Source of the DNA: Parcubacteria bacterium C7867-002
GTDB taxonomy: Bacteria; Patescibacteriota; Minisyncoccia; Phycocordibacterales; PALSA-1337
Assembly: GCA_001189105.1 (NCBI GenBank)
Contig: LFCL01000020.1
Location: 1-45,470, forward strand
Length of the DNA stretch: 45,470 nt
Direction: 5' to 3'
This document shows positions 5,156 through 44,334 of this stretch, piece by piece (position 1 is the first letter of the stretch; each line of letters starts with the position of its first letter). Below the pieces are notes generated by a model that was not told the origin of the DNA, searched no databases, and saw nothing but the letters and a program-made list of their open reading frames with translations. The position numbers were made by a program, and so were the translations under genes.

Positions 5156-7855
5156 ATGAATACATCAATTAAGGTTCACAGGATGTCGCTGCTTACACTC
5201 TTTGTGTTGGCAGCTTCTCTTTTTATGCCAGGGGCAACTGTACAAGCACAGACCCCTATCGGTTCATATCCGTTGACTGTCGCCCCCACACCGACAGTTT
5301 GTTATAACTTCGCTACTAATCTTGGTATCGGTTATACTGGCGCTGATGTAGTGGCGCTTCAGACATGGTTGATCGCTCAAGGTTTCGATATTCCATCTAT
5401 ACGGGCAGGCTTCACTCCAAAAGGATATTTTGGTGTTGAGACAAGTCTTGCAGTTAAGAAATACCAAACCGCTAAAGGTATTGAGGCAACTGGTTTTGTT
5501 GGACCTTTGACACGAGCGAGTATCAATATGTCATGTGAAAGGGGAGGTCCAATAGAAATTGGTTCTCCAATGTTTGAACTTGTCTCGACGAGTATTGAAA
5601 CGAGTGGGTATGATATAGATTCTCCGTATCTCTCAGCACGATTTAAAGTCAAAGTTAGTGCGTTTGGTGATGATGTTCTGGTTTCATCAACGAGTCCGGC
5701 TAGTTTAGTATTGTATCGTGCGGGTGTTGCTATGATTCCAGGAAGATACGCTGCAGTTTCTACTGTAAATGAAACATCTTCCAACCTGACTCCCGAGGGA
5801 TATTATCTCATTGAAGAAGGAACAACAAACACCTTCTCGGTAACTTATTCGTACGTAGCTCCTAGTTCAGTTGTGGTGGCAGGTCAATATATGGTGAAGA
5901 TGGAGTCGTTTAAATGGAAAAATTCCCAAGGTCAAACATATTGGCATGAAGGAGGAGATGACTGGAAGACGAGCTATGCAGTTTTGAATGGAAGGGGAGT
6001 GAGTACGCAAACGTCTATGAACGTGCAACTCATTAGTACGAATGCTGAATCAAATAATAGTGATGTGAGTGATATGCTCACGTTTAAGTTCAAAATGAAG
6101 GTTGCTGCAGTTGATGGGTCAGTAAAAATATCCACAAGTTCTTTAGAGGCTGTGGATGTTACGCTTGATCGCACTGGTGTTGTGGTTAATACACAACCAA
6201 ATCAACCAATGTCACATTCACATGTGACTATTCAGGATAATGATGAATGGCGTCTTACACCTGACGGTTATTACCTTATAGAAGAGGGAGAGTCTCATGA
6301 TTTTACTATTACGTATGTGTACGCGGTCCAATCTTCTGCGCAATATCGTGTCACGTTGAATAAAATCATGTGGAAAGATGAGTCAGGCGTTACTCATTCA
6401 TACAAAGGAGAGGATAACTGGAAAACACTGTATGTTTTTGGAAAAGGTCAAGTTATCACAGCACCTTCCATCACCTCCACATCTGCCAAGGCTGCAGGAA
6501 ATCTTGAAATGAATGCCGGGGGAGATTTGGCAATATCAGGCACCAATTTACTTGGAGGTGATTCTTCAAGCTTGAGGGTTTACATTGGAGGTCAATCTGT
6601 ACCTATCACTCAAAAGGATAATACGCTCCTCTATGTCAATGTGCCTTCAAATCTGACTCTAGGATCCTATTATGATGTGTATGTTAAGAATGATCGGGGA
6701 ACGAGTAATACTGTAAGAGTAAAAGTTGTATTAGTTATCACTAGTGCCAACCGTCCTCCAGTCATCAAAGGTGTTACAGCGCCAACTGTTCTCAAAGTAA
6801 ATGATGTTGGTACGTGGACAGTTATGGCTTCTGACCCAGAAAATGGTTCCCTTAGTTACTCAATTGATTGGGGTGAAGCAACTTGTCCTGCAGGATATGT
6901 TTGTTCAGCTTCAAGTGGCGCTTCATTCTCTCAAACATCGAGCTTTACTCATTCATACGCAACAGCAGGAACATATACGGTTAAGGTTACAGTTACCGAT
7001 GCTGCTGGCTTGAAAGCCCAGACGAGTTCAACGGTGAGAGTGGATACGGCGTCTGATACTCTTTATTCTCTAAATATCAAAAAAGCTGGTACAGGGACTG
7101 GAATTGTAATGTGGAAAGCTCTTGAGTGCGGCATTACTTGCTCGACCAATGTAGTTGCTGGTACAGAAGTGACTTTGACAGTGATACCACAAGTGAATTC
7201 GTTCTTCAGTGGATGGTCAGGAGCTTGCACAGGTACATCTTCGGCATGCACTGTAACAATGAATGAAAACAAAACGGTTGTTGCAAATTTCTCGGCCATG
7301 ACTTCCGTCGCGTGTCCCGCTGGCTACATCTGCACTCCTTCTGGTCAGGTAACTGCTTGTCCCGCCGGTTACACATGTACACCGACAACACTTAGTTGTC
7401 CTTCAGGATACACGTGTTACACAAAAGCACTTACAACACCGACTGTCACAGCAACAACTCCGTATATCACTATCGTCAGTCCTCGCTATGAAAACCTCAA
7501 AATAGGCGTCAAACATCAGATCAAGTGGAAGGATAGTCGTGAAAAAGGAAAGGGATTGCCACCTGTATATTACATCCTAATTACAGGTAGCAATGGAAAA
7601 CAGGTTATTGCTGATAATCTTGCAGCCTCAAAATGGTGTGATGATGTTCAGTGTTATTACGACTGGACTCCAACAACAGCATCAACCAATAATCAGATAT
7701 CGATCTACGATACTGCCAATGATCCAAATGCAGCATTGATTGGAAGAAGTACAATCTTCAACATTGAAGCAGGATCGCCAGTTTCTCAAACATCAACAAA
7801 TCTGAACGCCTCTATCTGGCAAGCGGTAAAAGATTACATGACGGGGATTCGGTAG
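5156..7855 (+). CDS. secreted multidomain cell-surface protein (PG-binding, duplicated module, IPT/TIG-like, PKD, InlB-B-repeat-like, Cys-motif repeats, Ig-like C-terminus)
   Basis: N-terminal signal peptide (LLTLFVLAASLFMPGATVQA). PG_binding_1-like GADVVALQTWL...GYFG..T..AVKKYQ. PKD-like FTHSYATAGTYTVKVTVTDAAG. A ~150-aa internal tandem duplication. Confidence 0.85.
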   Translation: MNTSIKVHRMSLLTLFVLAASLFMPGATVQAQTPIGSYPLTVAPTPTVCYNFATNLGIGYTGADVVALQTWLIAQGFDIPSIRAGFTPKGYFGVETSLAVKKYQTAKGIEATGFVGPLTRASINMSCERGGPIEIGSPMFELVSTSIETSGYDIDSPYLSARFKVKVSAFGDDVLVSSTSPASLVLYRAGVAMIPGRYAAVSTVNETSSNLTPEGYYLIEEGTTNTFSVTYSYVAPSSVVVAGQYMVKMESFKWKNSQGQTYWHEGGDDWKTSYAVLNGRGVSTQTSMNVQLISTNAESNNSDVSDMLTFKFKMKVAAVDGSVKISTSSLEAVDVTLDRTGVVVNTQPNQPMSHSHVTIQDNDEWRLTPDGYYLIEEGESHDFTITYVYAVQSSAQYRVTLNKIMWKDESGVTHSYKGEDNWKTLYVFGKGQVITAPSITSTSAKAAGNLEMNAGGDLAISGTNLLGGDSSSLRVYIGGQSVPITQKDNTLLYVNVPSNLTLGSYYDVYVKNDRGTSNTVRVKVVLVITSANRPPVIKGVTAPTVLKVNDVGTWTVMASDPENGSLSYSIDWGEATCPAGYVCSASSGASFSQTSSFTHSYATAGTYTVKVTVTDAAGLKAQTSSTVRVDTASDTLYSLNIKKAGTGTGIVMWKALECGITCSTNVVAGTEVTLTVIPQVNSFFSGWSGACTGTSSACTVTMNENKTVVANFSAMTSVACPAGYICTPSGQVTACPAGYTCTPTTLSCPSGYTCYTKALTTPTVTATTPYITIVSPRYENLKIGVKHQIKWKDSREKGKGLPPVYYILITGSNGKQVIADNLAASKWCDDVQCYYDWTPTTASTNNQISIYDTANDPNAALIGRSTIFNIEAGSPVSQTSTNLNASIWQAVKDYMTGIR

Positions 7856-28601: not shown

Positions 28602-29120
28602 ATGGCATATTGGTTACTCAAATCCGAAGGCAGTTGTTACTCTATCGACGATTTGGCTCGGGATAAACGCACTGCCTGGACAGGAATTCGCAATTTTCAA
28701 GCCCGTAACTACATGCGTGATGGTATGAATGTGGGTGATCAGGCTTTCTTCTATCACTCGAGTGGTACTCCACGAGATCCTTCAGGTATATATGGTATTG
28801 CACAGATTGTCGGCATGGCACATATCGATGAAACTGCTCTTGATCCGAAAGATGAACACTATGATGCAGAGATGGCGAAAGCATACAAAGAAATAAACCA
28901 GGGGCCTGTCCCGCGAAGTCCTGAGCTTGCGAAGGGCATAGTGGGATGGGTTGCAGTCGATATAGATTTTGTAAAAAAGTTTGATACACCAATCCTGCTG
29001 GCCGATCTCAAAAGAGATGCTGCATTGTCTCAGATGTTGGTTTTGCAGCGAGGTCAGAGGTTGAGTGTGATGCCGGTGACGGAAGAAGAGTGGGGGAGGG
29101 TTTTGGAAATTAAAAAATAA
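28602..29120 (+). CDS. EVE domain protein (PUA-like superfamily, THYN1-like)
   Basis: MAYWLLKSEG..YSIDDL......W.GIRNFQARNYMRD.M..GD.AFFYHS...P..I.GIA.I; C-terminal L.LQRGQRLSVMPVT.EEW..V. Confidence 0.85.
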   Translation: MAYWLLKSEGSCYSIDDLARDKRTAWTGIRNFQARNYMRDGMNVGDQAFFYHSSGTPRDPSGIYGIAQIVGMAHIDETALDPKDEHYDAEMAKAYKEINQGPVPRSPELAKGIVGWVAVDIDFVKKFDTPILLADLKRDAALSQMLVLQRGQRLSVMPVTEEEWGRVLEIKK

Positions 29121-29144: not shown

Positions 29145-30899
29145 ATGACCCAATCTTCCGCTTTGTCGTTGCTCAAAACGGGTGCCAACATGTTCATCAC
29201 CGGACCAGCGGGGAGTGGTAAGACGCATTTGATTAATGAATATATAAAGTACTTGCAGGAACATGGGGTTTCGGTTGGGATCACGGCGTCGACAGGGATT
29301 GCGGCAACACATATGGGCGGGGTGACGATTCATTCATGGTCTGGAATGGGAATTCGTAATAATTTTGATGACCGTGATTTGGAAGAATTGGCGGAAAAGG
29401 GGTATGTGGCGAACCGCATCAAAGATACTGCAGTCCTCATCATCGACGAGGTTTCGATGCTGCACCACTTTCGTTTGGATACACTCAATGCGATTACGAA
29501 ACATATTCGCAAAAACGATATGCCGTTTGGGGGATTGCAGGTAGTGTTATGTGGTGATTTTTTTCAGTTACCACCAGTTTCGAAATATGGAGAGCCGGAT
29601 ACGCATTTTATATATCGTTCAGAAGCATGGAAAGAAGGGAAATTCGCCGTCTGTTATTTGTCCGAGAACTATCGTCAAAAAGATGACGCTCATCTCTCTA
29701 TTCTCAATGAGATTCGTTCAGGTGAAGTCTCCGATGGTGCACGTGAAGAATTAAAAAATCGCTATAACAAACGTACGTTGACCACGATTGTTCCGACACG
29801 TCTTTATACACATAACGCCGATGTTGATGCGGTTAATGATATTGAGTTGGGTAAAGTCAGTGGTCCTGAAACCATATATGAGATGAGTTCCAAAGGGAAA
29901 AAGCCACTAGTCGAGGCCCTGAAGAAATCTTGTTTGGCACCAGAGATGTTGCGCTTACGCAAAGGGGCACACGTAATGTGTGTGAAGAATAATTTTGATA
30001 AAGGATATGTGAATGGAACACTCGGCACAATCGTCTCCTGTGGTTTTGGTGTAGACCCTGTCATTCATACGGCACCGACTCCAGAATTTCCGCAGGGCAG
30101 GAGAGTAACGATCGAATCGGCCAGTTGGAAAATTGAAGACGATGGACGGGTCCTTGCAGAGATTAATCAGTATCCATTACGGTTAGCCTGGGCAATCACC
30201 GTGCACAAAAGTCAGGGTATGAGTTTGGATGCGATCGAAGTCGATCTCTCGAAATCATTTGAACCGGGTATGGGATATGTGGCACTTTCTCGTGTTCGTA
30301 CATTGAATGGCCTTACTATTTTAGGAATAAATGAAGCGGCACTGCAGGTGCATCCTGAGGTGTTGGAATACGATCGTCACTTGCGTCAGTTATCAGAAAA
30401 AGCTGAGGCGGTTTTGGCGGGTACTGATAATTCTGATATTCAAAAAGCCCAGGATGAATTTTTGGCAAAAGTTGCTCCACTGTATTCGATGGGTAAGGGA
30501 AAAAAGAAAAAACGTCTGGGAATAGAAAAGGTTTCAACGTATGCAAAAACTGCCAAGCTTGTTCGTAGTCGCGTTTCACTCGGTGAGATGGCTAATGAAC
30601 GTGAGATGACAGTAGAGACGATCATCGCTCATCTTGAACAGTTGGTAGGAAGTGTGGATGAAAGCGAAAAGCTCTCGACGAAAGACATTGAATATTTAAA
30701 ATATGAAATTTCCTCACAACATTTTGGAAAAATTCAAAAAGCCTTGGAAGAGGTGTCGTTGAAACAGAAAGATGGTAAGCCACCCCTACTTTCATCGGTC
30801 AAAAGTAAGGTTCCGGCTAACATTACGTTTAAAGATATACGACTAGCGCGAGTGTTGTTGGGGTATATAGGGAAAGAACACGCATCTTCAGGGGAGTAG
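29145..30899 (+). CDS. Pif1/RecD-like SF1B DNA helicase with a C-terminal helix-turn-helix module
   Basis: Walker A ITGPAGSGKTHL; Walker B LIIDEVSM; CGDFFQLPPV; AITVHKSQGMSLD; GMGYVALSRVR. Confidence 0.9.
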   Translation: MTQSSALSLLKTGANMFITGPAGSGKTHLINEYIKYLQEHGVSVGITASTGIAATHMGGVTIHSWSGMGIRNNFDDRDLEELAEKGYVANRIKDTAVLIIDEVSMLHHFRLDTLNAITKHIRKNDMPFGGLQVVLCGDFFQLPPVSKYGEPDTHFIYRSEAWKEGKFAVCYLSENYRQKDDAHLSILNEIRSGEVSDGAREELKNRYNKRTLTTIVPTRLYTHNADVDAVNDIELGKVSGPETIYEMSSKGKKPLVEALKKSCLAPEMLRLRKGAHVMCVKNNFDKGYVNGTLGTIVSCGFGVDPVIHTAPTPEFPQGRRVTIESASWKIEDDGRVLAEINQYPLRLAWAITVHKSQGMSLDAIEVDLSKSFEPGMGYVALSRVRTLNGLTILGINEAALQVHPEVLEYDRHLRQLSEKAEAVLAGTDNSDIQKAQDEFLAKVAPLYSMGKGKKKKRLGIEKVSTYAKTAKLVRSRVSLGEMANEREMTVETIIAHLEQLVGSVDESEKLSTKDIEYLKYEISSQHFGKIQKALEEVSLKQKDGKPPLLSSVKSKVPANITFKDIRLARVLLGYIGKEHASSGE

Positions 30900-38919: not shown

Positions 38920-40209
38920 ATGAATTCTCCGGTCAAAGTCTCATTTCATTCGGGTGTTGGTTCGGTCACGGGAGCAAATTTTCTTTTAGAAACTCAAAAA
39001 GGCACACAAGTTCTGATCGACTGTGGTTTGATCCAGGGTGAGCGTGTAGCCATGCAGGAAAACCATCAGCCATTTGTCTATGATCGTACTTCTATTTCAG
39101 CGCTCATTATTACTCACGCACACCTCGATCACGTTGGCCGTATCCCGAAGCTGGTAAAAGAAGGGTATACCGGACCAATCTATTCAACTCCCGAAACACG
39201 CGAACTGGCGGAATTGGTTCTGACTGATGCGGTGAGTATCTTGGCGATGGAAGCGCGACAACAGAGTATTGATCCTCTGTATGAATTTAAAGATGCGGGA
39301 CATATTCTCGGATCTGCGATGGTTGAAGTTACAGTCAAAGGGGAGACTGATACCAAAGTACTGTTTACCGGTGATTTGGGTAATTCCCCAGCACCACTTC
39401 TGCGTGATTCTGAATCAGTTGGAGATGTTGATTATCTCGTGATCGAAAGTGTATATGGAGACCGCAACCATGAATCACGAGAACAACGTTCTGCGGTATT
39501 TAAAAAAGCAATTACTGATACGATTGCGCGTGGCGGAACGCTCGTCATTCCGGCCTTTTCTTTGGATCGTACCCAAGTCTTGTTATATGAATTAAACAAC
39601 TTGGTTGAACGAAAAGAGATCCCTTCGGTGCCGGTATATATTGATTCGCCCATGGCGACTAAGGCTACAGAGATATATCGTTCAGGTAAAGGTCTTTTTA
39701 ATGATGCGATTCAAGAGCAGATTGCACGAGGTGACGATATTTTCCATTTTCCTCGATTGCAGTACACGATTTCTCAAAATGAATCGCGTGACATCGATCA
39801 TATGAAGGGTGCCAAAATTATCCTGGCCGGATCAGGGATGTCTGTGGGGGGAAGAGTGCTGGCTCATGAAGAAAAATATTTACCACACGCAGAAAACACC
39901 ATCTTATTAGTAGGGTATCAATCTGTCGGTTCCTTTGGACGACGGTTGGCGGACGGTGCCAAGAATGTGAAACTTCATGGGCGTGAACTCGAGATCAAAG
40001 CAAAAGTCATGACATTGTATGGATATTCGGCTCATCGAGATAGTGATCATCTCCTGGAGACTGTTTCTACGGCAACCAAGCGTCTCAAGAAGGTGTTTGT
40101 GGTGATGGGGGAGCCAGGTGCCTCGATGCATTTTGCACAGCGTATCAATGATGAATTGGGAATCAAAGCGTTGATGCCAGAGAAGGATAAGGTATATGAA
40201 TTGAAGTAA
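38920..40209 (+). CDS. MBL-fold beta-CASP nuclease (RNase J/CPSF-like family)
   Basis: HAHLDHVGRIP, GHILGSA, FTGDLG, ESVYG, and beta-CASP motif C GYSAHRD. Confidence 0.82.
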   Translation: MNSPVKVSFHSGVGSVTGANFLLETQKGTQVLIDCGLIQGERVAMQENHQPFVYDRTSISALIITHAHLDHVGRIPKLVKEGYTGPIYSTPETRELAELVLTDAVSILAMEARQQSIDPLYEFKDAGHILGSAMVEVTVKGETDTKVLFTGDLGNSPAPLLRDSESVGDVDYLVIESVYGDRNHESREQRSAVFKKAITDTIARGGTLVIPAFSLDRTQVLLYELNNLVERKEIPSVPVYIDSPMATKATEIYRSGKGLFNDAIQEQIARGDDIFHFPRLQYTISQNESRDIDHMKGAKIILAGSGMSVGGRVLAHEEKYLPHAENTILLVGYQSVGSFGRRLADGAKNVKLHGRELEIKAKVMTLYGYSAHRDSDHLLETVSTATKRLKKVFVVMGEPGASMHFAQRINDELGIKALMPEKDKVYELK

Positions 40210-40824: not shown

Positions 40825-41331
40825 TTACTTCTTTTCGATGATGATGGTGACTCCTTTTGGTCCTTTGAGGGGAGCTTGGGCGATCTTGTACTCGACGGTG
40901 ATAAGTTTAAGGATTCTTTCGAGGCGTTCCTTGAGGAAATTGAATTCCATGTACTTTGAGCGTCCGGTAAGGAAGAGGTCGATTTTGACGCGATCTCCTG
41001 TTCCAAGCCATTCTGATACCTTTTTGGCTTTGAGTTCGAGATCGTGCTCGCCGGTACCGATCTTGACCTGGACGGTCTTGAGCTCGGTGACTTGCGCGCG
41101 GGTCTTGGCGGTCTTTACCTTCTTTTTTTCATCGTACTGGTACTTGCCATAATCCATAATCTTAGCGACCGGTGGTACTGCTGCGGGGGAGATCTCAATG
41201 AGATCGAATCCGCGTTCTTGTGCCGCCAAAAGCGCCTTGTCGAGAGCAAGAACACCAAGGTTTTCGCCTGCTTCCGTGATAACACGTAATTCGGGCGCCT
41301 TTATATGGTGATTGATGCGTACTTTGATCAA
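40825..41331 (-). CDS. infC: translation initiation factor IF-3, non-ATG (TTG) start
   Basis: RINHHIKAPELRVI...G..LGV......L..A.E.G.DL.EISP.A.PPV.KIMDYGK. There is no in-frame ATG or GTG between the upstream stop (41350-52) and the conserved core. Confidence 0.93.
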   Translation of the reverse strand: MIKVRINHHIKAPELRVITEAGENLGVLALDKALLAAQERGFDLIEISPAAVPPVAKIMDYGKYQYDEKKKVKTAKTRAQVTELKTVQVKIGTGEHDLELKAKKVSEWLGTGDRVKIDLFLTGRSKYMEFNFLKERLERILKLITVEYKIAQAPLKGPKGVTIIIEKK

Positions 41332-41418
41332 GGGATTACAGAGGCTTATTTATAGCATGGCATATGGGTTTATGCAAGGAATCTATTGGTTACGATCCTT
41401 TTTTAAAAGATAGGGTGG

Positions 41419-41427
41419 TGATACTAT
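41419..41427 (+). promoter_or_regulatory. extended -10 TGATACTAT, 7 nt upstream of ATG 41435
   Basis: Overlaps the first ATG (41426), so the true start may be 41435. Confidence 0.4.
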
Positions 41428-42178
41428 GATAAGCATGAAAAACATCGAAAAATATGGCTATATATTTCTTTGTTCTGATGCAACTGAAAGTGAGTGTTTA
41501 GAAAGAAACCTATTAGGTGGTACCACATCGTATCGTAAGAGTGTGGTAGGTCTCCAGAAAGGGGATACGGTTTATCTATATAATTTTAATAGTAAACGGT
41601 TACACGGTCCTTTTATTGCAACAAGCGAAGTAGGTACATTTGTTCCAGAGGCATGGGATGGTGAGTATTCAACACAAGTCTCTTACGATAAAGATCATAC
41701 CTATTTGCCTATTTATCGAGATCAACTCATGTCTATTCTTAGATTTAATAAAAAAGGTTTTCCTATTGCTCGGATATCTTCCGTACAAATTGATCAATTA
41801 GAACAAGTATTTAAGTCGAAAAAACGTCATCACAATTACGATGATAGTGCTGCGCTTGTGACACAGGATGGTCACAAAGTCAGAAGTAAGGGAGAGCAAA
41901 AAATTGATGATTGGTTATTTGCTCATAGGATTAGTCATGGATATGAATATCCTATTCCTGAAACAAAAAGATCTGATTTCTATATCCCAATTGACGATAC
42001 TAATGGGATTTATATCGAATACGTTGGACTTAATAATTCTGAATATCTAAAAAACATGGACGTAAAGCGAGAGATATACAAGAGGCATAATTTGAAATTG
42101 ATAGAGATCTATCCCAAAGATCTGAAGAATCTTGATAATTTTTTACGTGAAAGAATAGCACTCTTTCTGGGTAGGTAA
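41426..42178 (+). CDS. fusion protein: N-terminal DCD/EVE-like PUA-fold domain plus C-terminal PD-(D/E)xK-like nuclease-related module
   Basis: N-terminus: YGYIFLCSDATESECLERNLLGG...GDTVYLYNFNSKRLHGPFIATSE...PEAW. C-terminus: VRSKGEQKIDDWLF...I.HGYEYP....SDFYIP....IYIEYVG...EY......K.EIY......LIEIYP.DL. Confidence 0.65.
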   Translation: MISMKNIEKYGYIFLCSDATESECLERNLLGGTTSYRKSVVGLQKGDTVYLYNFNSKRLHGPFIATSEVGTFVPEAWDGEYSTQVSYDKDHTYLPIYRDQLMSILRFNKKGFPIARISSVQIDQLEQVFKSKKRHHNYDDSAALVTQDGHKVRSKGEQKIDDWLFAHRISHGYEYPIPETKRSDFYIPIDDTNGIYIEYVGLNNSEYLKNMDVKREIYKRHNLKLIEIYPKDLKNLDNFLRERIALFLGR

Positions 42179-43264
42179 TTACAAAAACTTTCTCACTATT
42201 TTAATGAGTTGCTCCGGTATTTTTTCGATGAAGAAGCGGTTTTTCCATTCGGTGAGGGTGACTTCTGTGGCGGAGCCGATATCGGTGGAAAAGTGGGCAG
42301 CGATCTCCTCGGCGAATGTGCGGTTGGTAGTGACGATATTGGCTTCGTAGTTATAGAGCAGACTGACGCTGTCGAAGTTCATGGATCCGACGGCTGCCCA
42401 GTCACCATCAATAACTACGGTTTTACTGTGAACAAGATTGCCTTCATAGAGGAAAATATGGGCACCTGATTCGAGAAGGGTATTGAAATATGATCGTGCA
42501 CCAATATCGAGTGCGGGGTAATGATCTGATTTTTCAGGGAGGAGGATGCGCACATCGACACCGCGGTGTGCAGCAAGCTTGATGACGCGAAGTAAGCGGT
42601 GTGTGGGTACGAAATAGGGCGAAGTGATATAGATGTATTTTCGTGCATCACGGATGGCCGCAACGACGCTGCGATAGAGATGACGTTTGCGAGGGGAAGG
42701 AGAGTTGGTGATATAGGAAAATTCAGGATCGAGAGGTCCTTGGAAAGCAGGTAATGATTGTGTTCGTCCTTGGGCTCTCATCCACATGCGTTCGAATTCA
42801 TAGTGCATTTTGGCAACAACAGGACCTTCGAGACGAACGTTGGTGTCACGCCAGTTCTTCATGGCATCCTGAACACAGATGCTTCCGGTATATCCGATTT
42901 TATTATCTATAATCAGAGCGCGGCGATGATTACGGAGGAACCACGAACGGACACTGGGAACTTTGAAATAACTCGGGATGAGGGTTTTCCAAAAAAGTAA
43001 TTCAATGTTTTGAGTCTTGAGATCCTCGGCAATGCTCGAGCCCCAGAAAGAGAAACTGCCCGCGGCGTCCCAGAGGAAACGAACTTTGACTCCGGCTCGC
43101 GCACGTTCGGCACAGATATCGATGAGGCGTTGGCCAAATTCATCTTTTACAAAAATAAACTGTTCTAAATCGATTGTTTTCGTAGCTTTGGCACAATCGG
43201 CAAGCATCGCTTCCCAAGCTTCTTGATTTGAAGGATACAGTTTCCAGGAGGTTGAGGAGGGCAT
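42179..43264 (-). CDS. phospholipase D superfamily protein, cardiolipin-synthase-like (two HKD motifs, the first degenerate)
   Basis: NHRRALIIDN..GYTGS and VHSKTVVIDGDWAAVGSMNFD. Start at ATG 43264 (TATACT 6 nt upstream); the ORF-track start overlaps smpB. Confidence 0.8.
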   Translation of the reverse strand: MPSSTSWKLYPSNQEAWEAMLADCAKATKTIDLEQFIFVKDEFGQRLIDICAERARAGVKVRFLWDAAGSFSFWGSSIAEDLKTQNIELLFWKTLIPSYFKVPSVRSWFLRNHRRALIIDNKIGYTGSICVQDAMKNWRDTNVRLEGPVVAKMHYEFERMWMRAQGRTQSLPAFQGPLDPEFSYITNSPSPRKRHLYRSVVAAIRDARKYIYITSPYFVPTHRLLRVIKLAAHRGVDVRILLPEKSDHYPALDIGARSYFNTLLESGAHIFLYEGNLVHSKTVVIDGDWAAVGSMNFDSVSLLYNYEANIVTTNRTFAEEIAAHFSTDIGSATEVTLTEWKNRFFIEKIPEQLIKIVRKFL

Positions 43265-43309
43265 AGGAGTAGTATATAAGGAATATATAAATGCGCTAGC
43301 GGTGAAATG

Positions 43310-43318
43310 TGATAGGAT
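43310..43318 (+). promoter_or_regulatory. extended -10 TGATAGGAT, 6 nt upstream of the smpB ATG
   Basis: Same geometry as the other candidate leaderless genes. Confidence 0.45.
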
Positions 43319-43324
43319 ATTTCC

Positions 43325-43771
43325 ATGACTACCCTGGTAGACAATAAAAAGGTTCACTTTAATTATGAAATCGGCGACACATTCGAAGCGGGTGTGGAGC
43401 TTCTTGGACATGAAGTAAAGTCACTCAAGAAGAATCAGGGCTCTCTTGACGGTTCATATATGATTGTACGTGGAGGTGAGGCGTATATGGTGAATACGTT
43501 TATTCCTCCATATCAGGAAAATAACACACCGGATGGGTATGATCCGCGTCGTAACCGTAAGCTTATTTTGAACAAAAAGGAGATCGCCGAGCTTGCTTCT
43601 ATCGAAGGGGATCGGGGTTTGACAATAGTGCCAATTTCGATATATAATAAAGGTAATCTCATCAAGGTCAAACTCGGAGTCGCTCGCGGCAAGAAGAAGT
43701 ATGACAAACGCGAGTCGATTCAAAAACGTGAGGTTGACCGAAATGTGAGAAGGGAGTTTAGGGATAGGTAG
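43325..43771 (+). CDS. smpB: SsrA-binding protein SmpB
   Basis: NKK..FNYEI...FEAG.EL.G.EVKS......SL..SY; R.RKLLL.K.EI; adjacent to ssrA. Confidence 0.95.
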   Translation: MTTLVDNKKVHFNYEIGDTFEAGVELLGHEVKSLKKNQGSLDGSYMIVRGGEAYMVNTFIPPYQENNTPDGYDPRRNRKLILNKKEIAELASIEGDRGLTIVPISIYNKGNLIKVKLGVARGKKKYDKRESIQKREVDRNVRREFRDR

Positions 43772-43919: not shown

Positions 43920-44285
43920 GGGGATGATCGGTATCGACAATTGCCGTCTCCCGTTCGTGCGGTGCGAGCGCTGCTATCTCGTAAATCTGGCAGAAACCAC
44001 AAATGCTAAAAACACCGTTTCTCCGTATTTCGGAGCCAAGGATTTTGCATTCGCACTCGCTTAAGTAGTGCGCGTTCGTCTAAGGGGATCCATACCTTAG
44101 TTGCGGATGTCATAACCCGGACGTAGGAATAGAGAACTTCTCACTCTGTATTCCGAAACCTAGAGATCGTGAATGTGTGTTTCGTAGACTTTTTCATCGC
44201 ATTCATTAAACATCAATTTCTACTATCACCGTAGAATCGTTCGGCGAGATTCAGTTGCACGTGGGTTCGATTCCCACCATCTCCA
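43920..44285 (+). ncRNA. ssrA: tmRNA (366 nt, one-piece)
   Basis: 5' GGGGAUGAUCGGUAUCGAC. 3' GUGGGUUCGAUUCCCAC-CAUCUCC-A. The acceptor stem has G3-U70. Tag ORF 44005-44064 encodes AKNTVSPYFGAKDFAFALA*. CCA is not fully encoded (ACAA). Confidence 0.92.
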
Positions 44286-44334
44286 CAAATAAAAAAGACC
44301 AGCCTTGCGCTGGGATTTTTTATTTGTGGAGATG
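44278..44334 (+). terminator. long hairpin/terminator that includes the tmRNA 3' acceptor strand
   Basis: catctccacaaataaaaaa (44278-96) pairs perfectly with ttttttatttgtggagatg (44316-34). Inner stem ccagc/gctgg. Confidence 0.7.

Follow-up and report, generated by a model that had tools for sequence, protein, structure and literature searches.

Within the 45,470-nucleotide stretch of Parcubacteria bacterium C7867-002 analysed here (contig LFCL01000020.1, hereafter the window), an open reading frame (ORF) of 250 amino acids on the + strand at 41426-42178 is predicted to encode a DCD domain, a PUA-like reader, fused to a nuclease module of the PD-(D/E)xK fold. It is located between infC (40825-41331, - strand) upstream and a PLD-family gene, here called cls (42179-43411, - strand), downstream. 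An initial annotation made from the DNA alone had described such a fusion; the ORF and all motif strings quoted there are real and occur in the translation at exactly these coordinates, and the placement of infC upstream and of a PLD-family stop codon abutting the ORF at 42179 was correct. The features of the locus are the following.

41379..42178, no strand assigned: cassette inserted as compared with empty sites, ~37-47 bp of leader plus the ORF, ~790-800 bp
41426..42178, + strand: DCD-nuclease ORF, 250 amino acids; its TAA stop at 42176-42178 abuts the convergent cls stop
41456..41812, + strand: predicted DCD domain (PUA-like reader), residues 11-129, from Pfam PF10539, AlphaFold2 (AF2) with Foldseek, and conservation
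41813..41854, + strand: interdomain linker, residues 130-143, from the AF2 model
41855..42160, + strand: predicted PD-(D/E)xK-fold module (Bax1-like or PDC-S69-type), residues 144-245, from profiles and AF2 with Foldseek
41894..41896, + strand: codon of E157 in helix alpha-1, 100% conserved in 142 modules, probably at about the position of Bax1 E275
41975..41977, + strand: codon of D184 at the start of beta-2, 99% conserved in the 142 modules, aligned with AfBax1 D305
42017..42019, + strand: codon of E198 in beta-3, 100% conserved in the 142 modules, aligned with AfBax1 E318
42065..42067, + strand: codon of K214 in helix alpha-2, 99% conserved in the 142 modules, aligned with a lysine in the EYLRKKAEK helix of Bax1

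As infC and cls both lie on the - strand, the ORF necessarily forms a transcription unit of its own, and the monocistronic organisation assigned to it by the initial annotation is borne out by this geometry. The convergent stop codons abut directly (TAA followed by TTA), and a search for a terminator between the two genes found none. Direct reading of the sequence revealed a Shine-Dalgarno-like GGGTGGTG 6 nt 5' of the first ATG. The previously proposed -10 element, TGATACTAT at 41419-41427, overlaps this ATG, and promoter-like matches in the region did not exceed those in shuffled sequences (3 vs 4.0 ± 1.9). An alternative in-frame start, the ATG at 41435 (M4), leads to a protein of 247 amino acids, which is also the length in the public gene call for the contig. 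The ORF is beyond chance, with 13 orthologues at 48-62% identity and E-values down to 1e-99. A decaying pseudogene was considered and rejected, as the ORF is intact and all near-invariant polar residues are kept; the only departures from the family consensus, W200V and K211M, are also present in the closest orthologue (P0002).

The guanine-cytosine (GC) content drops to 0.33-0.35 exactly over the gene, compared to 0.43-0.49 on both flanks; for the trough of ~790 bp as a whole, 0.34 stands against 0.46. A metagenome search for empty sites with the neighbouring cls protein yielded 11 loci, six of which (L088, L089, L090, L091, L092 and L094) show both cls and infC, and most of these six also smpB, rplT and the gene of a beta-CASP RNase in the same order. 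Although top identities to these relatives reach 90% for cls, 96% for infC and 97% for rplT, the DCD-nuclease gene is absent from all six, and their cls-infC spacers measure 70-340 bp as compared to 847 bp in the window. In the alignment of filled and empty DNA (L088/L089), homology extends through the cls stop codon and resumes at ~41378-41388 on the infC side; neither direct or inverted repeats nor a target-site duplication were found at the cassette ends. Named relatives of the flanking RNase all belong to the Patescibacteria (Paceibacterota, Parcubacteria, Taylorbacteria), which places the host as Paceibacterota-like. The nearest named DCD-nuclease comes from a Saccharibacteria metagenome-assembled genome (MAG; 57% identity), and other homologues occur in Gammaproteobacteria, Persephonella, Pyrinomonadaceae (Acidobacteriota), Omnitrophota, Ignavibacteria, Planctomycetota and deltaproteobacterial MAGs. 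The GC trough, the six empty syntenic sites and the scattered phyla together mark the gene as accessory and horizontally acquired. It is a recent arrival, carried as a single-gene cassette.

Residues 11-129 are assigned, by profile and model, to a canonical and bona fide DCD domain with a predicted PUA-like beta-barrel fold. Pfam PF10539 matched with E=7.2e-19 (68.3 bits vs a cutoff of 27.8) over model positions 2-126 of 126, whereas no other Pfam family reached E<=1 on the protein; precomputed PF10539 annotation was present on 13 of 13 orthologues. The full-length AF2 model, calculated from 14 orthologues, revealed two well-folded domains with a mean predicted local distance difference test score (pLDDT) of 88 and values of ~87-96 in the DCD part. 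A Foldseek comparison of this half with the PDB retrieved YTH, EVE (PH1033, MJECL36 and VcaM4I) and ASCH structures at a probability of 1.00; the DCD/EVE (PUA-like) hallmarks noticed in the initial annotation are thus confirmed by family and fold. Within the linker, residues 135-142 showed pLDDT values below 50, and the predicted template modelling score (pTM) of the whole model was 0.54, which indicates a flexible relative orientation of the two domains.

Conservation within the reader was assessed by aligning 81 DCD domains of nuclease fusions with eight eukaryote-type repeats, taken from proteins in which CCCH zinc fingers or a Torus domain are present as well. Both groups have in common I13, F14, C16, T20, C24, G31, G46, L51, N53, G61, F63, A65, P74, A76, W77, Q84 and V85, mainly within the motifs IFxC, LFLxN/D, GxFxA, PxA(W/F) and PxQV. 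The FGLP-like motif is degenerate in the window protein (LLGG). Separately, several proteins that contain between two and four DCD repeats but lack the nuclease (P0049, P0060, P0088, P0090 and others) were found at E-values of ~1e-15 to 1e-30 and 23-40% identity to bacterial DCD; one of them also contains a CCCH zinc finger and Torus. This multi-DCD set looks eukaryote-type and bears on the prokaryotic origin of the eukaryotic domain.

A rival interpretation is a nuclease directed at RNA, in which the DCD domain would read a modified base in tRNA, rRNA or phage transcripts, in line with proposals for the DCD and YTH proteins of eukaryotes, and the RNA would be cleaved, either as a toxin or as a defence at the RNA level. 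Structures of YTH in complex with RNA lead the fold matches of the reader, and bacterial DCD is 30-40% identical to eukaryote-type repeats occurring with CCCH zinc fingers; RNA binding was predicted for eukaryotic DCD in the comparative study by Bell et al. (PMC7641849). Some PD-(D/E)xK enzymes do cut RNA, and the cap-snatching endonucleases of arenaviruses and bunyaviruses are found among weak fold matches. These RNA endonuclease matches, however, are of low probability (0.1-0.4), the nearest nuclease relatives and the other fusion partners of the module (KilAC/ANT, winged-helix, Myb, helicases) are DNA-directed, and the prokaryotic DCD contexts in that study are of the restriction-modification (RM) type (PMC7641849). 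We therefore consider cleavage of RNA quite unlikely.

Residues ~144-245 are predicted to form a PD-(D/E)xK-fold nuclease module. Neither Pfam nor NCBIfam has a model that extends over residues 130-250, NCBIfam gave no match for the protein, a single-sequence search of the PDB with the window protein returned noise only, and PHROGs showed weak matches restricted to the C-terminal part. PADLOC profiles, in contrast, recognised the C-terminal half: PDC-S69 with 1.4e-27 (window residues 130-245 against model positions 165-282 of 289), HEAT_CxxC_PD-DEXK with 1e-10, and the C-terminus of PDC-S68, a model of ~1200 positions. When 45 diverse module copies were combined into a profile and compared with the PDB, archaeal Bax1 was matched in its nuclease domain (E=1.3e-3); on the module side the alignment reads cDFyip...vYiEywg...eYekrkeekk. 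The domain-only AF2 model had a pLDDT of 93 and comprised, in domain numbering, the elements H17-28, E47-50, E56-61, H67-82 and E86-90. Its Foldseek matches were the catalytic domain of I-Bth0305I (TMq 0.63, root-mean-square deviation 3.0 Å), Bax1, TnsA, Hjc, NucS, McrC and the DdmD nuclease domain, all confident matches being PD-(D/E)xK proteins. The restriction-endonuclease fold proposed for this half in the initial annotation is confirmed by the Bax1 profile match together with these exclusively PD-(D/E)xK matches. Its more specific suggestion, that the module is known from accessory domains of HelD/helicase-IV-type proteins, receives weak and indirect support from the JGI name "DNA helicase-4" on one homologue of 154 amino acids, from one copy matched on a plasmid inside an annotated RecD-like DNA helicase and from the ~1200-position PDC-S68; the profile search of the PDB retrieved no HelD structure. 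The window protein had no DUF790 (PF05626) match at E<=1, and among 54 related modules only two showed weak ones (best 0.0029). By these comparisons the module is placed as a distant relative of Bax1/DUF790 and not as a member of that family.

The module is characterised by the signature DGHxVRSxxExxIDxWL ... HxYE ... DF ... IEY(W/V)G ... YxxxxxxKxxxY. When conservation was counted over 142 homologous modules, the D/E/K catalytic candidates could be mapped as an intact acidic triad, E157, D184 and E198, followed by the invariant K214 on the next helix. H150, H171, S154, D148 and Y218 are also 99% conserved, and all of them are kept by the window protein. Two features are specific to the family and lie outside the Bax1 alignment, namely HxYE and the invariant hairpin DGHxVRS. 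In the structural study of XPB-Bax1, E275, D305 and E318 were described as the acidic active-site residues, and the substitution D305A lowered nuclease-domain activity (PMC7293015). The initial annotation had rightly cautioned that a canonical ExK lysine is not evident in IEYVG. At this position the window protein carries V200, 92% of the 142 modules a tryptophan and Bax1 an alanine (EIAG); as Bax1 is active, the absence of the lysine is a property shared with an active nuclease lineage and no sign of inactivity. From this pattern of conservation we infer that E157, D184 and E198 form the metal site and that K214 of the following helix takes the role of the lysine.

The kinship to Bax1 raises the question whether the protein is a repair nuclease specific for lesions or aberrant structures, in which a base that is damaged or aberrant would be recognised by the DCD domain and a nick set nearby by the Bax1-like domain, a small-scale counterpart of the incision step of archaeal XPB-Bax1. 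The only solved relative detectable by sequence is indeed the repair nuclease Bax1, NucS/EndoMS, Hjc and Vsr-like enzymes are among the fold matches, and some orthologues are located beside NUDIX, Ham1/ITPase, glyoxalase/Ble-like or GST genes with house-cleaning or stress roles. A core function, however, is not expected to be absent from six near-identical relatives, foreign in GC content and scattered over unrelated phyla; neither an XPB-like protein nor another repair partner is conserved, and the module is common to families of defence candidates. A role in repair thus appears improbable.

As the best structural match is the catalytic domain of a homing endonuclease, a selfish, free-standing cassette was also considered, which would cut and insert at intergenic sites without benefit to the host and use the DCD domain for binding and targeting DNA. 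A minimal insertion of ~790 bp with sharp boundaries between essential genes and a location that differs in every genome would agree with such a behaviour. On the other hand, neither repeats, an intron or intein context nor a conserved target site were found, and the insertion sites are unrelated across loci. We know of no PUA-type reader domain in a homing endonuclease. Identities of 48-62% among orthologues with an invariant active site argue for sustained selection on function, and we consider a purely selfish element highly improbable.

An exhaustive HMMER scan over 1.84 billion representatives gave 2363 matches at E<=1e-3. Among the best 150 of these and the 13 close orthologues, to which the classification of architectures refers, at least 78 are DCD-nuclease and at least 16 DCD-DCD-nuclease proteins; 54 carry the nuclease module behind another N-terminus, and 15 are DCD-only proteins, nearly all of them multi-repeat forms without the nuclease. 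The alternative N-termini comprise KilAC/ANT, winged-helix, Myb and HEAT domains, and all 110 proteins tested (110/110) matched PDC-S69, PDC-S68 or HEAT_CxxC_PD-DEXK through the nuclease module. Varied DNA-directed N-termini combined with a common C-terminus known from defence candidates is the pattern of a DNA-directed effector. Judged by these architectures, the module appears as a portable effector which is usually joined to DNA-binding or DNA-tracking domains.

The 16 tandem forms (P0021, P0023, P0032, P0035 and others) comprise ~380-435 amino acids, one of them 561, with two DCD domains preceding the same nuclease; with such an arrangement, two marks may be recognised, or the readers may dimerise within one molecule. 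Furthermore, the module occurs with a non-DCD N-terminus of ~100 amino acids at many loci (L028-L082) from more than 20 Vibrio species. On Vibrio replicons of ~1.7-2.1 Mb in the plasmid collection (H2-H5 and H7), no gene is annotated under the module match, and these may be unannotated small cassettes. A full-length DCD-nuclease homologue with 29% identity was found on a predicted viral contig (locus L099, 5828-6547; IMG/VR UViG_3300028920_002854), where it lies inside an ORF of 438 amino acids (5240-6556); the contig looks GC-rich, with many long ORFs in six frames.

The downstream gene had been noted in the initial annotation as a neighbour of the PLD family. It encodes a cardiolipin synthase homologue, for which TIGR04265 was the best match (2e-70, yet below the trusted cutoff), with DrmC and NucT far weaker. 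Its candidacy as a nuclease partner was rejected: cls stays in place at all empty sites, those of the six relatives without the DCD gene, which argues against a partnership, and is absent from the other DCD-nuclease loci. More generally, an all-vs-all comparison of ORFs within ±5 kb of the gene at 21 loci revealed no family in more than two loci, so that neither a conserved neighbour nor an operon partner exists among them. No methylase is encoded in the ~790 bp cassette or its flanking genes. At two loci of distant homologues, the gene is preceded by an MmeI-type RM enzyme whose end lies 32 bp upstream (7159-9969 in L009) or by an N6/N4 DNA methylase 16 bp upstream (9245-9985 in L006), while a CD-NTase/Cap15 pair of a cyclic-oligonucleotide-based anti-phage signalling system (CBASS) and a methylase lie nearby in L084 and an ISL3 transposase in L014.

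The methylases at L006 and L084 would fit a signal derived from the cell's own methylome better than a restriction of methylated DNA. Such a signal could operate in abortive infection: the DCD domain would bind a free modified nucleotide or oligonucleotide released from phage-degraded nucleic acid, and binding would activate or oligomerise the nuclease allosterically and lead to indiscriminate DNA degradation with cell death or arrest. A precedent is PUA-Cal-HAD, whose PUA-like domain senses free m6-dAMP and switches on the fused effector (PMC12871103), and the flexible linker and low pTM of the window protein are compatible with allosteric control. DCD, however, belongs to a PUA family different from that of the PUA-Cal sensor, most loci including the window are without an adjacent methylase, and neither a partner gene nor evidence of higher-order assembly was found. 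As the other partners of the module bind DNA, its action is suggested to be targeted rather than triggered. A nucleotide-sensing effector is thus unlikely in our view.

The combination of DCD and nuclease is not without precedent, and the novelty suggested by the initial annotation was overstated. Bell, Wolf and Koonin described in 2020 prokaryotic DCD fusions including "a fusion to PD(D/E)XK phosphodiesterases" and deduced from fusions and contexts (type I RM, McrB, PD(D/E)xK, methyltransferases) that DCD in prokaryotes recognises modified DNA so that it can be restricted (PMC7641849); in addition, dozens of representatives at 50% identity exist. The logic of DCD plus PD-(D/E)xK is the same here, and both studies are computational only. 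Differences concern the range, as DCD in that study was rare and mostly archaeal or hyperthermophilic (PMC7641849), while we found a wider bacterial distribution with at least 78 fusions and 16 tandem forms. They also concern the nuclease, which is pinned here to the Bax1-like/PDC-S69-type module; the examples of Bell et al. may be members of the same family, and their supplements give no accessions for DCD-nuclease fusions.

Among characterised enzymes, VcaM4I (EVE-HNH) comes close in its organisation, with an N-terminal PUA-superfamily reader, a linker and a C-terminal nuclease in one polypeptide and without a methyltransferase partner, none being encoded beside the window gene either; it is a solved precedent and was among the fold matches of the DCD half. 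TagI is an SRA-HNH protein and MspJI combines an SRA-like reader with a PD-(D/E)xK nuclease, both being type IV enzymes with PUA readers. The window protein differs from all three by its reader, which is DCD and not EVE or SRA, and by its nuclease, which is Bax1-like PD-(D/E)xK without the ExK lysine and neither HNH nor MspJI-type. Bax1 itself (DUF790; PDB 6P66 and 6P4F), the only solved structure detectable by profile, has the motif PDF...YIExxG...EYLxxKxxK in common with the module, D184 and E198 aligning with D305 and E318 and the lysine of (D/E)xK missing from both. Unlike the window protein, it is a multi-domain repair nuclease of ~370-470 amino acids working with the XPB helicase, and DGHxVRS and HxYE fall outside the alignment. 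PDC-S69, PDC-S68 and HEAT_CxxC_PD-DEXK carry the same C-terminal nuclease module, but their N-terminal halves are KilAC/ANT-like, HEAT or helicase-sized and not DCD; in the literature we found no paper on PDC-S69 and, for these PADLOC candidates, no published validation. PUA-Cal-HAD also fuses a PUA-like sensor to an effector and defends via recognition of a modified nucleobase, but there the sensor binds free m6-dAMP and drives filament assembly of a phosphoesterase together with a HAD partner (PMC12871103). The window protein, in contrast, has a nuclease effector, no partner and a reader from a different PUA family.

We favour the interpretation that the gene was acquired horizontally and encodes a type IV-like (modification-dependent) DNA endonuclease that acts on its own, with a probability slightly better than even (about 0.55). 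It builds on both domain identities, the conservation of the catalytic residues, the single-gene cassette, its recent insertion, the patchy phyletic spread and the reuse of the module in families of defence candidates. With DCD and PD-(D/E)xK both identified in one polypeptide, the suggestion of the initial annotation that a reader-nuclease fusion is a type IV-like or defence candidate was reasonable. In the proposed mechanism, the DCD domain, a PUA-superfamily beta-barrel and kin of EVE, YTH and SRA, would settle on DNA and take up a modified base into its pocket, with the Bax1-like PD-(D/E)xK nuclease tethered by the flexible linker of ~14 residues. The nuclease, with a presumed metal site of E157, D184 and E198 and K214 substituting the canonical ExK lysine, would cleave the backbone close to the base that is read, probably once two protomers have paired on the DNA, by analogy to other reader-nuclease fusions. 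Self-DNA would presumably be spared for want of the mark, whereas marked phage or plasmid DNA would be cleaved; VcaM4I and other nucleases with PUA readers follow the same scheme. Modified-base binding by the DCD pocket, the kind of base, DNA as the substrate, dimerisation, the geometry of the cut and an anti-phage phenotype are the parts of this mechanism which we infer.

Several observations weigh against a modification-dependent endonuclease. About 17 of the 21 loci have a housekeeping or unannotated context, and defence, RM or mobile neighbours occur in only ~4 of 21. The methylase directly upstream of the homologue in L006 sits uneasily with an enzyme that depends on modification only, unless the two differ in specificity, and it is the observation that fits the model least. 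Neither of the closest solved relatives of the nuclease is a restriction enzyme, Bax1 being a nuclease of repair and I-Bth0305I a homing endonuclease, and the Foldseek E-values of this half are modest (best 7e-3). PDC-S69 is matched over its C-terminal 40% only, so that PADLOC would not call the protein; true PDC-S69 members score 3.8e-109, and a match over the full-length model is not seen for the window protein. In the window protein, furthermore, V and M stand in place of the family-consensus residues W200 and K211. No homologue (0) was found in 50,697 cultured (GenBank) phage records, and plasmid matches are limited to the C-terminal module, which makes the evidence for mobility on known elements thin. 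Finally, in the literature we found no experimental ligand for any DCD domain.

To a specialist, a type IV-like endonuclease of this kind is unsurprising, as the architecture class was predicted in 2020, the reader-nuclease logic is familiar and the family is not rare. Our analysis adds the identification of the nuclease as the Bax1-like module common to PDC-S69, PDC-S68 and HEAT_CxxC_PD-DEXK, a resolution of the ExK problem, a wider phyletic range including the Patescibacteria, the tandem-DCD variant and a clean comparison of filled and empty sites. It may be speculated that the family provides the first experimentally tractable DCD protein and that its ligand is none of the usual 5mC/5hmC/6mA marks but a hypermodified base, a lesion or a signal in the form of a free nucleotide. 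The protein would then represent a new specificity class of type IV-like or triggered nucleases and, on the prokaryotic side, an anchor for tracing where DCD function in eukaryotes came from; we regard this as doubtful. We found no member of the DCD-nuclease family tested in the literature. If the favoured interpretation is true, a minimal and easily expressed DCD-nuclease of 250 residues is at hand whose cutting pattern would report the DCD ligand, and which offers a compact and testable handle on DCD specificity. The DCD domain was defined in plant cell-death proteins and has been studied in plant programmed cell death, and comparative genomics links DCD proteins to the origin of eukaryotic readers of RNA and DNA modifications. 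Modification-dependent nucleases are moreover useful as reagents for epigenomic mapping. The locus represents a natural "knock-in", as near-identical Patescibacteria that either carry or lack the cassette illustrate the entry of defence modules made of one gene into very small genomes. With 2363 matches at E<=1e-3 and three PADLOC candidate families, characterising the nuclease module once would annotate thousands of proteins.

Some further genes of the window deserve mention. The initial annotation correctly noted a second PUA-like gene adjoining a helicase: a stand-alone EVE protein is encoded at 28602-29120 (+ strand; PF01878, 3.5e-44), followed 25 bp downstream by a PIF1-like helicase at 29145-30899 (+ strand) with a C-terminal HTH_40. 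A helicase of this PIF1+HTH_40 type also lies ~5 kb from the DCD-nuclease orthologue in L084. A tmRNA gene at 43920-44288 (+ strand; Rfam RF00023, 116.9 bits) is located directly 3' of smpB, which is an ordinary housekeeping arrangement. The beta-CASP/RMMBL RNase ORF at 38920-40209 (+ strand) comprises 429 amino acids compared to ~453-470 in its homologues, and its real start may be upstream of the first listed start codon. The cls ORF as listed (42179-43411, - strand) overlaps the start of the divergent smpB (43325-43771, + strand) by 87 bp; cls relatives at identities of ~80% or less mostly align from residue ~40-54 onward, and the true cls start is probably further downstream.

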